Source of the DNA: Thermoanaerobaculia bacterium
GTDB lineage: Bacteria; Acidobacteriota; Thermoanaerobaculia; UBA5066
Assembly (NCBI GenBank): GCA_963816185.1
Contig: CAWFJJ010000006.1
Coordinates: 1,326-65,325 of the forward strand
DNA: 64,000 nucleotides
Reading direction: 5' to 3'
Of this stretch, positions 12,574 through 21,146 are shown piece after piece. Each line of letters opens with the position of its first letter. Positions within the stretch are counted from its first letter, which is position 1. The position numbers and the translations under genes were made by a program. The notes below the pieces were generated by a model. It did not search any database, was not told where the DNA came from, and saw nothing but the letters and a program-made list of their open reading frames with translations.

Positions 12574-12589
12574 TGGAACGGTCCTTGCT
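12574..12589 (+). promoter_or_regulatory. candidate sigma-54 (-24/-12) promoter TGGAACGGTCCTTGCT
   Basis: Matches TGGCACG-N4-TTGCW at 11 of 12 fixed positions with exact GG/GC spacing; lies 135 bp downstream of the bEBP gene and ~40 bp upstream of the first RBS of the precursor array; a 6-bp-stem inverted repeat (CTGAGActgttTCTCAG) sits immediately upstream. Confidence 0.5.
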
Positions 12590-12630
12590 CCGCCCGGGCC
12601 CGGTCCCGAATTCGAGAAAGGAGAAACGAC

Positions 12631-12912
12631 GTGAACCACGAAGAAAACCCCCTCGGGCTTCTACAAGAAGGCGGTGAAGGACCTCGACGTCAAGCCCGCC
12701 AAGGTGACGTCCGCCCGGGCGTCCAGTCTCGAACCGGCCGTCAGCGACCGCGAAGAAGGCGAAGAACCGATCATGAAGAAGACCCCGAAGAAAAGCGCCC
12801 GGACAAGCTTCTCAAAGAAGACGCGGTCAAGGACCTCGCACCAAGCTCCGCCAAGGGCAGGCGGCACGAGGCGGCACGGGAAGGTCTGTGACAGGGGTGG
12901 ATCGAGCATCTG
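12631..12912 (+). pseudogene. two decayed precursor-peptide gene copies at the head of the array (frame-disrupted)
   Basis: The DNA is clearly homologous to intact precursor genes, with the same RBS AGGAGAAACGAC then GTG, and AAGGCGGTGAAGGACCTCGACGTCAAGCCCGCCAAG. Small indels break the frame: copy 1 reads VNHEENPLG..; copy 2 from ATG 12773 reads MKKTPKKSA then out of frame; the leader-like KEDAVKDLAPSSAKG reappears in another frame. Confidence 0.5.
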
Positions 12913-13190
12913 ACGAGCGACCTCCAGCTCGGCAAGGTTCTCGTCCGAGAGATTCCTGTCACTGCGACATGAAGACGGGCCGCCGCAAGACGAAGCCGTC
13001 GCCGGGGTTCGTCCCCCTCAGGGACCTCGTCCCCCGAAACGACCCCAAGGGCGGGTCGGCCGGGAAGACGGTATTCGGTGAACGTCCCCCGATCGCTCGA
13101 GACAGAAGAAAAGCACCCCTTCAAGGATGTTCCGGCCGAACGAAGGCAGAAGCCGGGTCACGACCGAAACAGGAAGAAAGGAGAAACGCC
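12913..13190 (+). repeat. intergenic array repeat, copy R1 (divergent 5' part)
   Basis: Shares ~200 nt with the other copies (ATGAAGACGGGCCGCCG..GGTATTCGGTGAACGTCCCC..CCGGCCGAACGAAGGCAGAAGCCGGGTCACGACCGAAACAGGAAG) ending in the RBS of P1. Confidence 0.7.
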
Positions 13191-13376
13191 ATGAAGAAGA
13201 CCACGAAGAAAAGCTCCTCGAAGGCCTCTCACAAGAGAGCCCGCAAAAACCTCGACGTCACGCCTGCCAAGGGCGGGACCGTCCGGGGAGGCGGCAAGGC
13301 GGGCTCGGGCAGGACTACTGTCAGCGACCTCCAGATCAGCAAAGTTGTCGACAAGAGTTCAGCCGTGCTGTTCTGA
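13191..13376 (+). CDS. precursor peptide P1 (61 aa); leader MKKTTKKSSSKASHKRARKNLDVTPAKGGTVRGG + core GKAGSGRTTVSDLQISKVVDKSSAVLF
   Basis: Strong RBS AGGAGAAACGCC-ATG; conserved leader shared with 14 other genes; long Ser/Thr-rich core; stop 23 nt before the CxxCxxCC-1 start. Confidence 0.7.
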   Translation: MKKTTKKSSSKASHKRARKNLDVTPAKGGTVRGGGKAGSGRTTVSDLQISKVVDKSSAVLF

Positions 13377-13399
13377 GAGCGACCTGCTCGAAGACTGGC

Positions 13400-19312: not shown

Positions 19313-19393
19313 GTTCCTGGAACACCCTTCATAGGTCTGGTCGAACCACTACAAGCCGGGTTACGACCGAAACAGGAAGAGAGGAGACACGAC

Positions 19394-19537
19394 ATGAAGA
19401 AGAACACGAAGAAGACAGCCTCCAAGGCAAAGGGGCCCAAGGCGACGAAGAACCTAGAGGTCAAACCCGCCAAGGGGGCGTCGGTCCGTGGCGGAGTGCA
19501 TGGTGGCTGGGACCAGGTCGGGAACAAGAAGTATTAG
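19394..19537 (+). CDS. precursor peptide P14 (47 aa); leader MKKNTKKTASKAKGPKATKNLEVKPAKGASVRGG + core VHGGWDQVGNKKY
   Basis: RBS GAGAGGAGACACGAC-ATG; leader of the P10 subtype; its stop abuts the start of CxxCxxCC-2. Confidence 0.7.
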   Translation: MKKNTKKTASKAKGPKATKNLEVKPAKGASVRGGVHGGWDQVGNKKY

Positions 19538-20782
19538 TTGCCCTCTGATCAAGTGACCTCTCCGAAGACCCGCGCGGTCCGGCTCCCGTCGATCACCGAT
19601 GCTCCCGCCAGGGGCCTGGCACCGCTTCATGCGCGCTGGCTCGAGGCGGCGCTCGGGGGCAAGATTCCTTCCGAGCCACACGCGGCGTGCGACAACTGCG
19701 CGATGCTGCCGGTGTCCGGAGGCGCGGATGAAGAGCGCGGCGCAGTCTTCTTCAACCCCAGGACGAAGTGCTGCACTTACCTGCCGAGACTTCACAACTT
19801 TCTCGTCGGGGCGATCCTCGCAGACGAAGCGACCGATATGGCCGAAGGGCGTGCCCGCGTCCTGGAGAGGATCGGGAAGAAGGTCGGCGTGACGCCGCTC
19901 TGGGTCGGCGCCGGCGGCGCGTACAGCCTCGTGTACGACCACGGAGACGGGGTCTTCGGCCACAGCGAGGCGATGCGCTGCCCCTACTATCTCGAAGACC
20001 GGATCGACGGCGGCTGCGGGGTGTGGCGTCACCGCAATTCCATCTGCATGACCTGGTTCTGCAAGCATGAGCGCGGGGCCCCGGCGCTGCGGTTCTGGGA
20101 CTCGGCCAAAGAGCTGCTGATGGCCGTCGAGGAGAATCTCGCGATCCATTGCCTCGTCACTCTGGGTTTCGACGACGCGGCGCTCCGGACCAATTTCCCG
20201 TTCAAGGTTCCGAAATCTCAGCGGTCGGAAACCGTGAAGGGGGACGAGCTCGACGGCACGGTGAGCCCGGAACGATACAAGGCTCTCTGGGGGAGCTGGA
20301 CGGGCCGCGAGGAGGAGCTCTACCGCCAATGCGACGCGATCGTCCGAGACATCGAGTGGAAGGACGTCGAGCGCATCGGCGGCGCGAGCGTCGCACTCCT
20401 GTCGCAGCTCGCGCGCGCGGCCTATCAGGCGGTGATCCGTGACGACCTTCCCGAGCGGCTCGAGATCGGCAATCTCAGCGTCATCGGCACGGGGCGCGGG
20501 ACCTTGCGCCTGGCCACGTACAGCGCCTACGACCCCATCGACGCCCCGGCCGCGCTTCTCCCCGTGCTTCCCGCGTTCGACGGCTCCAGGGTGCCCGACG
20601 CCCTTCGCGCGATCGAAAGGGACCATGGGCTCGTCCTGAGCCCCGAGCTCGTCCGAAAGCTCGTCGACTACGGCCTGCTCCGCGCGGTGGACGCCCCCGA
20701 AGACGAGCAAGTCTGGCGAAACTCCATGAAAAGGCGGAAGCCGGGTCATCGCCAAAACAGGATGAAAGGAGAAACGACATGA
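19538..20782 (+). CDS. CxxCxxCC-motif protein (YkgJ / PF03692-like), paralog 2
   Basis: TTG at 19538 or GTG at 19553 (VTSPKTRAVRLPSITDAP aligns to MVRLPTIPDTP of paralog 1). Same Cys motifs (CDNCAMLP..KCCTYLPRLHNF; CPYYLEDRIDGGCGVWRHRNSICMTWFCKHE). A C-terminal extension reads through a truncated array repeat and its stop overlaps the P15 ATG (ATGA). Confidence 0.7.
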   Translation: MPSDQVTSPKTRAVRLPSITDAPARGLAPLHARWLEAALGGKIPSEPHAACDNCAMLPVSGGADEERGAVFFNPRTKCCTYLPRLHNFLVGAILADEATDMAEGRARVLERIGKKVGVTPLWVGAGGAYSLVYDHGDGVFGHSEAMRCPYYLEDRIDGGCGVWRHRNSICMTWFCKHERGAPALRFWDSAKELLMAVEENLAIHCLVTLGFDDAALRTNFPFKVPKSQRSETVKGDELDGTVSPERYKALWGSWTGREEELYRQCDAIVRDIEWKDVERIGGASVALLSQLARAAYQAVIRDDLPERLEIGNLSVIGTGRGTLRLATYSAYDPIDAPAALLPVLPAFDGSRVPDALRAIERDHGLVLSPELVRKLVDYGLLRAVDAPEDEQVWRNSMKRRKPGHRQNRMKGETT

Positions 20783-20910
20783 AGAAGATCACGAAGAAAG
20801 GTTCCTCAAAGGCTTCCAAGAAGAAGGCGGTCAGGAACCTCGACGTCAAGCCTGCGAAGGGCGGGACGGTCCGTGGAGGGGCAACCAGACTCGACAAGTG
20901 GCCCGGGTAG
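20779..20910 (+). CDS. precursor peptide P15 (43 aa); leader MKKITKKGSSKASKKKAVRNLDVKPAKGGTVRGG + core ATRLDKWPG
   Basis: RBS AAAGGAGAAACGAC-ATG; conserved leader; last intact copy. Confidence 0.7.
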   Translation: MKKITKKGSSKASKKKAVRNLDVKPAKGGTVRGGATRLDKWPG

Positions 20911-20929
20911 ACGCTTGGCGGCCGGCAGC

Positions 20930-21146
20930 ACGCGAGGCCGGCTACGCGGTACTTCCGCGCGAAGAGCGTGAGCCGCGCGGAGAGGTGGAGAAGCTGAGCG
21001 AGCTGCGTCGCACGATGAGGATACGGTTGCGGGCTTCGCCGGTCACCGATTGCCCAAGGCTCGCGCGCCGCATGGACGATGTCTACCTCCGGCTATCGGG
21101 CGCGAGCCCTCGTCGGAAACGACCCCGGGCCGCGCTCCCGCGTAAT
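20930..21146 (+). pseudogene. relic of a second GT41 glycosyltransferase gene (C-terminal ~45 codons only)
   Basis: ORF 20898..21149 encodes ..ELRRTMRIRLRASPVTDCPRLARRMDDVYLRL.., homologous to the GT41 C-terminus ..ELRRTMRKRLKASPVTDCASLARCIEDAYVQL..; DNA identity is also visible (CGCACGATGAGGA, GTCACCGA(C/T)TGC). Confidence 0.5.

Follow-up and report, generated by a model that had tools for sequence, protein, structure and literature searches.

In prochlorosin-type, NHLP and Nif11 systems for peptides that are ribosomally synthesized and then modified post-translationally (RiPPs), one promiscuous enzyme and a C39 ABC exporter process many precursors, which are encoded in tandem and join a conserved double-glycine leader to hypervariable cores. 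Here we analysed a 64,000-nucleotide stretch of DNA from a Thermoanaerobaculia bacterium of the Acidobacteriota (contig CAWFJJ010000006.1, assembly GCA_963816185.1; hereafter the window), in which a tandem array of small precursor-peptide genes of the same design lies downstream of a C39 exporter. An earlier note on this DNA had suggested an undescribed RiPP class or a secreted peptide library. We reach a similar view, and put at about 70% the probability that the cluster directs the biosynthesis and export of a small, RiPP-like secreted peptide library of an undescribed class. This view is supported by the linkage of a Cys-rich protein family to double-glycine peptides across phyla, by the conservation of the whole architecture in other Thermoanaerobaculia contigs and by the lack of an NCBIfam match for either the leader or the Cys-rich protein. 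We classify the system as a new class within a known kind, the multi-precursor double-glycine RiPP-like systems.

The locus differs from the prochlorosin, NHLP and Nif11 types in its short, Lys-rich leader, which fits neither the NHLP nor the Nif11 model; in its enzymes, as it lacks LanM, YcaO and radical-SAM proteins and instead encodes a Cys-rich protein with a RiPP recognition element (RRE) and a GT41 glycosyltransferase; and in its cores, which derive from a structural protein. The exporter is most similar to that of NHLP systems (best NCBIfam model TIGR03796), but scores below the cut-off and has two extra cyclic-nucleotide (cNMP)-binding domains. Class II microcins and Gram-negative double-glycine bacteriocins (for example, colicin V with CvaAB) also combine a double-glycine leader with a peptidase-containing ABC exporter and an HlyD-type adaptor; however, their cores are longer, hydrophobic, usually unmodified and accompanied by an immunity gene, whereas those in the window are hydrophilic and only 6–28 amino acids (aa) long. 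Membership of the NHLP, Nif11 or Bacteroidetes double-glycine families, or of the FliB equivalogs, was rejected, as the leaders and the Cys-rich proteins had no NCBIfam match. We found no description of Hcp-like cores, of a CxxCxxCC-type RiPP enzyme or of GT41 in a RiPP cluster in open-access papers or on bioRxiv.

A search of the whole window with a leader profile returned 17 copies, every one of them on the forward strand within 12.6–20.9 kb, and no match elsewhere; these are exactly the 15 intact and 2 decayed genes that had been described previously. We refer to the decayed copies as p1 and p2 and to the intact ones as p3–p17 (Table 1). The matches (E values of 1e-17 to 1e-21 for the intact copies) extend from the first start at 12631 to the last end at 20910, and the intact genes encode products of 41–62 aa. 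Alignment of these products recovered the conserved leader of about 34 aa that the earlier note had proposed (consensus MKKTTKKSPSKASHKKAVKNLEVKPAKGGTVRGG), with invariant residues M1, K6, K7, K11, L21, R32, G33 and G34. The R-G-G at the junction is invariant in all 15 copies and the Val at −4 is nearly so. Lys accounts for about 40% of the 20 N-terminal residues, and there is no hydrophobic signal sequence.

Among the codons of the leader, 16, 17 and 28 of 33 columns are variable at the first, second and third positions, respectively, and the mean dN/dS among paralogues is 0.33; purifying selection therefore acts on the reading frame of the leader, in line with the selection on translation postulated before. 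Of 16 precursor upstream regions, 14 have AGGAGA, the ribosome-binding site that was thought to be the same throughout, at 6–8 nucleotides (nt) ahead of the start; the other two do not. Four leaders compared with NCBIfam at E ≤ 0.1 had no match, which agrees with the earlier view that they are of neither NHLP nor Nif11 type and also leaves without a match the housekeeping small-protein family that had been considered as their possible source. The array stands out in composition (GC content of 0.61–0.65, AT skew of up to 0.34), owing to coding sequence that is rich in AAG and GAA.

Table 1 Features of the precursor-peptide cluster. Positions are those of the window, except in the last row; coordinates of precursor genes include the stop codon.
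Feature	Coordinates	Strand	Basis or remark
Rotamase_2-like (peptidyl-prolyl isomerase (PPIase)-like) protein, first cluster gene	5634..7100	+	weak Pfam match, PF13145, E 1.4e-5
Peptidase-containing ABC exporter, 1,060 aa	7082..10264	+	Pfam domains
HlyD-type periplasmic adaptor	10265..11466	+	tblastn with L001 orthologue
Sigma-54-dependent activator, AAA+ and HTH	11533..12438	+	NCBIfam models of bacterial enhancer-binding proteins
Candidate activator-binding site, TCGAAACGATGC-N6-GCATCGAAACGA	12488..12517	+	read from sequence
Sigma-54-type promoter, TGGAACGGTCCTTGCT (GG-N10-GC)	12574..12589	+	one mismatch to TGGCAC-N5-TTGCW
p1 and p2, decayed precursors	12631..12913 (starts 12631 and 12773)	+	leader-profile matches in shifted frame
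orf75 copy, frame-shifted	12969-13190	+	
Precursor p3	13191-13376	+	leader profile; core GKAGSGRTTVSDLQISKVVDKSSAVLF
Cys-rich protein 1, 8-Cys N-terminal domain and C-terminal RRE	13400..14542	+	
Precursor p4	14606-14737	+	leader profile
Precursor p5	14748-14885	+	leader profile
orf75, representative	14922..15149	+	nhmmer; 6 copies in window, 2 in L001
Precursor p6	15146-15286	+	leader profile
Precursor p7	15374-15520	+	leader profile
Precursor p8	15597-15734	+	leader profile
orf75 copy, in-frame TGA	15772-15996	+	
Precursor p9	15997-16128	+	leader profile
Precursor p10	16175-16306	+	leader profile
Precursor p11	16328-16453	+	leader profile
orf75 copy	16505-16729	+	
Precursor p12	16726-16914	+	leader profile
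TPR and GT41 glycosyltransferase	16914..18386	+	Pfam PF13844 E 3.6e-35, TPR_19, TPR_16
orf75 copy	18386-18610	+	
Precursor p13	18607-18741	+	leader profile
Precursor p14	18777-18908	+	leader profile
orf75 copy	18945-19172	+	
Precursor p15	19169-19312	+	leader profile
Precursor p16	19394-19537	+	leader profile
Cys-rich protein 2 with RRE	19538..20782	+	paralogue, 88% identical to copy 1
Precursor p17	20779-20910	+	leader profile
Second GT41, remnant of C-terminal 45 aa	20898..21149	+	BLASTP E 3e-14, 60% identical, residues 444-486
orf75 copies in L001	12006-12230 and 14388-14717		

The leader-recognising element looked for in a RiPP cluster is present in the two paralogous Cys-rich proteins of about 380 aa, in which it forms the C-terminal part; it would bind the leader, as its predicted fold suggests. 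The protein matches no Pfam or NCBIfam model. An exhaustive profile search nevertheless placed it in a large family (2,002 clusters at 50% identity with E ≤ 1e-3; 1,205 with E ≤ 1e-30) that spans Acidobacteriota, Planctomycetota, Chloroflexota and Proteobacteria, and nearly all of the 150 members listed are full-length (350–400 aa). Across 53 diverse members, eight Cys residues are invariant (C39, C42, C66, C67, C136, C148, C158 and C163) in the pattern CX2C-X23-CC...C...C...C...C, together with W, R, K and H residues. We regard the family as a probable RiPP maturase, in which a new Cys-rich, possibly Fe–S, domain is fused to a recognition element. RRE-dependent maturases (lasso B1, NisB, MccB and TigE) similarly have a PqqD-like element fused to or partnered with an enzyme, but the partner domain in the window contains eight Cys residues and resembles no solved structure.

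A lead to a chemistry comes from FliB, the flagellin lysine-N-methylase, which alone among characterised enzymes has a comparable Cys pattern. It is SAM-dependent, has eight conserved Cys residues and an N-terminal [4Fe-4S]-binding motif, CX4CX3CC, and was related to PF03692 by its authors (PMC8598068). The Cys-rich proteins resemble FliB and PF03692 proteins in length (about 380 aa), in their eight conserved Cys residues and in a C..C...CC group near the N terminus; the putative substrates nearly always contain Lys, and FliB modifies a secreted structural protein. They differ in the spacing of the motif (CX2C-X23-CC compared with CX2CX2CC or CX4CX3CC), no RRE has been reported in FliB, and their lack of any NCBIfam match includes the FliB model, if the library has one; matches to PF03692 are sub-threshold. 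The resemblance appears to be a lead rather than membership. More speculatively, the eight-Cys domain could be a metal or Fe–S site, distantly like PF03692 and FliB, that modifies the core, with Lys as a candidate target given its presence in 109 of 111 cores. As a probable maturase, the family hints at a chemistry that has yet to be encountered among peptide natural products.

Run against public metagenomes and metagenome-assembled genomes (MAGs), the leader profile yields 148 small proteins. One Thermoanaerobaculia MAG (L001/L002 in our numbering of related loci) encodes a Rotamase-like protein, a cNMP-C39-ABC exporter, HlyD, a sigma-54 activator, peptides, GT41 and two Cys-rich proteins. 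Several metagenome contigs carry the cluster as well. The synteny of Rotamase-like protein, exporter, HlyD, enhancer-binding protein, peptides, GT41, orf75 (a short repeated reading frame described below) and Cys-rich protein is kept in L001, L003 and L008–L011. Among the loci compared, GT41, orf75 and Hcp-like cores are confined to those of the Thermoanaerobaculia type. We also inspected eight distant loci with Cys-rich homologues of 37–47% identity (L004–L007 and L017–L020). The Cys-rich gene adjoins Lys-rich or canonical double-glycine leader peptides in five of the eight and a cNMP-C39-ABC exporter in three. L005 (Blastocatellia) has six Lys-rich peptides with ...V[RK]GG or ...QGG, the exporter, HlyD and a PPIase; L006 (Tepidisphaeraceae) has a peptide, an exporter and HlyD; L017 (a MAG) has four peptides, a sigma-54 activator, HlyD and an exporter; and L007 (Ktedonobacterales) and L019 (a metagenome contig) have one canonical double-glycine leader peptide directly upstream. 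No clear precursor stands beside the homologue in L018 or L020, or in L004, which is cut by the contig end. The earlier note had proposed to look for co-occurrence of the leader with both the Cys-rich and the GT41 genes: the Cys-rich protein does recur with double-glycine peptides across phyla, whereas GT41 was seen only in Thermoanaerobaculia-type loci.

The exporter contains two cNMP-binding stretches (PF00027), a C39 peptidase domain (PF03412, E 1.2e-32), PF00664 and PF00005, and its translation has the catalytic-type C39 motifs DCGAASL and NHWVVL. Its match to the NHLP-exporter model reaches 527 bits, below the cut-off of 853 bits. The domain and motifs bear out the earlier suggestion that the Gly-Gly terminus fits the C39 exporter and HlyD encoded upstream, by which the cores are predicted to be cleaved and exported. 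In LahT150 and ComA, the C39 domain recognizes hydrophobic residues at −4, −7 and −12 of a short leader helix (V-4, L-7 and L-12 for LahT150), and a LahT-type peptidase is expected to tolerate any P' sequence (PMC6363468). The leaders of L005, L007 and L019 fit this rule; in the Thermoanaerobaculia leader, the usual helix is replaced by KPAKGGT. We place the predicted cleavage after VRGG because distant relatives (for example, L005 and L017) keep only the Gly-Gly equivalent to the second one in the window, V[RKQ]GG. Cleavage at the first Gly-Gly, between PAKGG and T, would be a better fit to the recognition rule (L-12, E-8 and L-7), but we rejected it as the main site: this Gly-Gly varies to KSG and KGA and is missing from L017, while V[RKQ]GG does not vary.

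Taken together, these features suggest the following course. The sensor-less sigma-54 activator would switch on the promoter at 12574, yielding one transcript of about 8.5 kb, from which each of the 15 precursor genes, as read from its sequence, would be translated from its own strong ribosome-binding site into a Lys-rich leader ending in V-R-G-G and a core. The leader would be captured by the C-terminal RRE of the two Cys-rich paralogues; the eight-Cys domain may then modify the core, with Lys as the candidate target, and in this lineage the TPR–GT41 protein may add a sugar. Homology suggests that the cNMP-gated exporter would use its C39 domain to cut after the second Gly-Gly, and that the core would leave through HlyD. 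In the Thermoanaerobaculia branch, the cores came from an hcp gene, each amounting to one or two secondary-structure elements and all of them jointly tiling almost the whole of Hcp.

Several observations weigh against this reading, in which the RiPP assignment is itself inferred and core modification, cleavage and export are all putative. The first two precursor copies downstream of the promoter are pseudogenes. The hlyD gene is split into two open reading frames (ORFs) by one base missing from a run of G near 10983; a tblastn search with the intact 400-aa HlyD of L001 places the frame switch at aa 242/243 (CAGCGG-GGGGCG compared with CAGCGGCGAGGCG). Intact 400-aa orthologues occur in L001, L003, L009 and L010; the break is probably a homopolymer error of sequencing or assembly and not the mark of a pseudogene. 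Neither an outer-membrane factor nor an immunity gene was identified at the cluster. The leader has V-4 and V-12 but Gly at −7 and Pro at −10, and so departs from the canonical C39 pattern. Finally, the N-terminal Cys-rich domain has no solved structural relative, and matches to PF03692 are weak and sub-threshold (best E 0.002), occurring in 18 of 53 family members and not in the window protein; for these reasons the Cys-rich protein could be a chaperone rather than an enzyme.

That last point leads to the alternative that survives best, namely that the products are unmodified double-glycine peptides, akin to class II bacteriocins or microcins or to pheromones, that undergo cleavage and export and nothing else, with the Cys-rich RRE protein acting as a chaperone, regulator or immunity factor. 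The double-glycine motif, the peptidase-containing exporter and HlyD speak for this alternative, the Cys-rich domain matches no enzyme of known chemistry, and the extreme diversity of the cores would have to be tolerated by any enzyme acting on them. Yet RRE domains are known almost exclusively from peptide-maturation enzymes or their partner proteins, the invariance of eight Cys and further W, R, K and H residues over about 2,000 clusters hints at a catalytic or cofactor site, the short hydrophilic cores are unlike typical unmodified bacteriocins, and the cluster has a dedicated GT41. We therefore consider unmodified peptides unlikely and favour a modified, RiPP-like library.

The earlier note described the cores as mutually unrelated, which does not hold: those of p6, p15 and p16 have (I/V)HGGWDQxxNKKx in common, those of p5, p8 and p14 share ...KIHI, and at least 5 of the 15 are clear fragments of Hcp (TssD, PF05638), the tube protein of the type VI secretion system (T6SS). 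The annotation at JGI already labels several leader homologues 'Hcp', and the Pfam model T6SS_HCP matches cores at profile positions 2–28, 14–42, 36–67, 41–75 and 55–75 (E 7e-5 to 1e-3). For a closer comparison, the cores were scored with a profile of 117 real Hcp proteins, and shuffled cores served as controls. The core of p3 (GKAGSGRTTVSDLQISKVVDKSSAVLF) corresponds to Hcp positions 44–70 and scores 41.4 bits, compared with 10.5 ± 1.7 bits for its shuffles (Pfam T6SS_HCP, E 0.0011, profile positions 36–67). Scores far higher than those of the shuffles were also obtained for p12 (Hcp 22–32) and for p6, p15 and p16 (Hcp 148–160, the natural C terminus). As weak candidates, p5, p8 and p14 (...KIHI) and p13 (...KWIE) may correspond to the Hcp motif HKDWIEV, and no likeness to Hcp was detectable by this comparison in p4, p7, p9, p10, p11 or p17.

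The pattern is clearer in a wider set of 111 unique cores, made up of metagenome homologues and the window's own products. Against shuffles, 58 of the 111 reach p ≤ 0.01, where about one is expected by chance, and the scoring cores jointly span Hcp positions 4–160 with two short gaps. A 152-aa 'virtual Hcp', stitched together from cores in Hcp order, matches real 161-aa Hcp proteins at E 4.8e-43, with 54–56% identity across 98% of its length. The closest full-length Hcp among the 120 matches listed is 56% identical, and none of these is related closely enough to be a recent donor. The fragments keep 55–105% of the score of real Hcp across the same positions, with the most conserved Hcp residues retained, and some score there as well as real Hcp does. 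In the small sample of comparable cores, pN/pS is about 0.40. Lys occurs in 109 of the 111 cores, some of which are close variants of one another, compared with an expectation of 82–92 (0 of 20,000 simulations reached 109). The statement that the cores lack Cys is true of the window; 13 of the 111 related cores contain it.

These comparisons show, at the level of sequence, that the Thermoanaerobaculia branch drew its cores from a gene for Hcp. They are best described as fragments and not members of the family: each gene holds 6–33 Hcp residues behind an export leader, a single core covers at most about 30 profile positions of a complete domain of about 160 aa, and the Hcp beta-barrel cannot form. 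The 64-kb window has no hcp or T6SS gene: a phmmer search of its six-frame translation with Hcp1 of Pseudomonas aeruginosa returned p3 as the sole match, and no T6SS domain was present in the large ORFs scanned. Derivation of the leader from the Hcp N terminus was rejected, as homologous leaders in other phyla carry non-Hcp cores. The source of hypervariable RiPP cores is clearly traceable here, to an entire Hcp cut into strand-sized peptides behind one leader, and the case is relevant to the unsettled matter of how the prochlorosins and other multi-precursor libraries acquire their diversity.

An origin in Hcp invites the view that the array is functionless debris, the decaying duplicates of an ancestral leader–Hcp fusion gene. 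Truncated pieces of a larger protein, two frame-shifted precursors (in which the differences exceed simple homopolymer errors), the GT41 remnant and pseudogenised orf75 copies do attest to duplication and decay at the locus. Decay alone, however, is hard to reconcile with the leader dN/dS and third-position bias, the core pN/pS, the strong ribosome-binding site retained in 14 of 16 copies, and the maintenance of core types and architecture in several independent contigs. Moreover, no leader is fused to a full-length Hcp among 120 listed of the 148 leader matches (the longest is 94 aa), and inspection by eye revealed no Hcp homology past the stop codons of p3 and p12. We judge the debris explanation very improbable. 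Just as improbable is an intracellular role for the products as small Lys-rich proteins that bind, for example, nucleic acids or ribosomes, with the conserved N terminus as the functional part and an incidental Gly-Gly: the 40% Lys and the missing signal sequence would suit this, but the R-G-G junction is invariant, linkage to the C39 exporter and RRE protein extends across phyla, and no housekeeping family in NCBIfam was matched.

If the cores are a secreted library, their products could be antimicrobial, signalling or Hcp-mimicking. Under the last of these, the exported cores would be natural mimics of Hcp, strand-sized, Lys-flanked and possibly methylated or glycosylated, that interfere with or are sensed through the Hcp tubes of neighbours; they might cap or co-aggregate with Hcp subunits of T6SS-armed cells. 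This idea, which we hold to be a long shot, is tenable because conserved Hcp residues are kept, selection is purifying and no recent donor is seen among the 120 matches listed. Were it true, the array would be a peptide library directed against a weapon and not an antibiotic of the usual kind, and its products would be the first natural secreted peptides aimed at a T6SS component in the literature searched.

Not all core motifs need stem from Hcp. Motifs of p4 and p7, (V/L)PAVQK and TGLL, recur in cores of L017 (8159-8691), in which the Cys-rich protein is only 47% identical to that of the window. Because they recur in so distant a locus, they may be an older, non-Hcp core type and an ancestral substrate motif that predates the Hcp-derived cores. 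Many of the cores that do not score as Hcp end in ...KWIE(L) or ...KWLQI, and Trp and Pro are about twice as common in the 111 cores as in Hcp.

Expression of the array is probably controlled by a sigma-54 promoter and the adjacent activator, which the earlier note had missed: the position at which it began the finding, 12574, is this promoter and not the start of a gene. The activator matches many models of bacterial enhancer-binding proteins (for example, NifA, E 1e-84, and PspF, E 8e-74) and has no receiver or sensor domain; its L001 orthologue consists only of Sigma54_activat and HTH_8. In L001, the one related locus examined for the promoter, TGGAATGGCCCTTGCT lies at the equivalent position (~9943-9958), and a near-identical copy of the upstream repeat, TCGAAACGATGC-N6-GCATTGAAACGA, at the same place (~9858-9888). 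The repeat, which generalizes to TCGAAACGATGC-N6-GCAT(C/T)GAAACGA and lies about 60 nt upstream of the promoter in the window, is a likely binding site of the sensor-less activator. Inside the array there is no other good match to a sigma-54 promoter, and no intrinsic terminator is predicted on the forward strand, which is consistent with one long sigma-54-dependent operon. The upstream read-through residues of P0070 and P0082 could encode the same promoter, as judged by back-translation of protein only.

A 5' leader of about 40 nt, GCCGGGTCACGACCGAAACAGGAAGAAAGGAGAAACGAC, is common to 11 precursor genes (for example, at 13152-13190, 14567-14605 and 20740-20778), and might serve in RNA processing, in stabilisation or as the site of a regulator. 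It is often preceded by a CCGGCC...GCCGG hairpin and is also present without an orf75 copy upstream. The GT41 assignment is secure (PF13844, 121.7 bits compared with a cut-off of 25; TPR_19, 36.7 bits), and the gene was found only in L001, L008–L011 and L014, all of the Thermoanaerobaculia type. The remnant of a second GT41 gene after p17 and the presence of two Cys-rich paralogues point to a segmental duplication, in which the block copied was Cys-rich protein, precursor and GT41.

The 'intergenic' repeats of about 230 nt encode orf75, a protein of about 74 aa with the sequence M(M)KTGRR..GFVPLRDLVPRNDPKGGSAGKTVFGERPP...DVPAERRQKPGHDRNRKKGETT. Rfam models matched none of them in the 11–23 kb region, and a reading as riboswitches or small RNAs was dropped, as codon-position bias (8, 4 and 19 variable columns at the three positions of codons 11–42) and in-frame indels, such as one of 2 aa in L008, show that they are coding. 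The protein is kept in L001, L008, L010, L012, L015 and L016; its stop codon shares bases with the ATG at which the next precursor gene starts (ATGA), and it has no obvious ribosome-binding site. From its sequence it looks like a diverged paralogue of the leader, with KDL..P..KGG followed by TVFGE instead of TVRGG. The KIHI precursors p5, p8 and p14 and the decayed p2 are each directly followed by orf75 and then by another precursor, a repeated three-gene module in which the KIHI precursor has a 3-aa leader insertion (TGE or TDG).

Orthologues of the Rotamase-like protein occupy the same position in L001, L003, L009 and L010, and a PPIase also lies within the L005 cluster. Elsewhere in the window are two S9 prolyl oligopeptidases, an M1 peptidase and an S8 subtilase (2884-5133 (−), 42290-44437 (+), 25678-27705 (−) and 49265-51634 (+)). 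One of the prolyl oligopeptidases (2884-5133) lies immediately upstream of the cluster, but L001 does not have it at that place, and so it is probably unrelated. The window also encodes three large Ser/Thr kinases and a PAS-GAF-GGDEF-EAL protein (37729-40425 (−), 52937-55663 (+), 56606-60664 (+) and 32479-35214 (+)); two of the kinases have PD40 beta-propeller repeats and one has an AAA_16 STAND-type ATPase.

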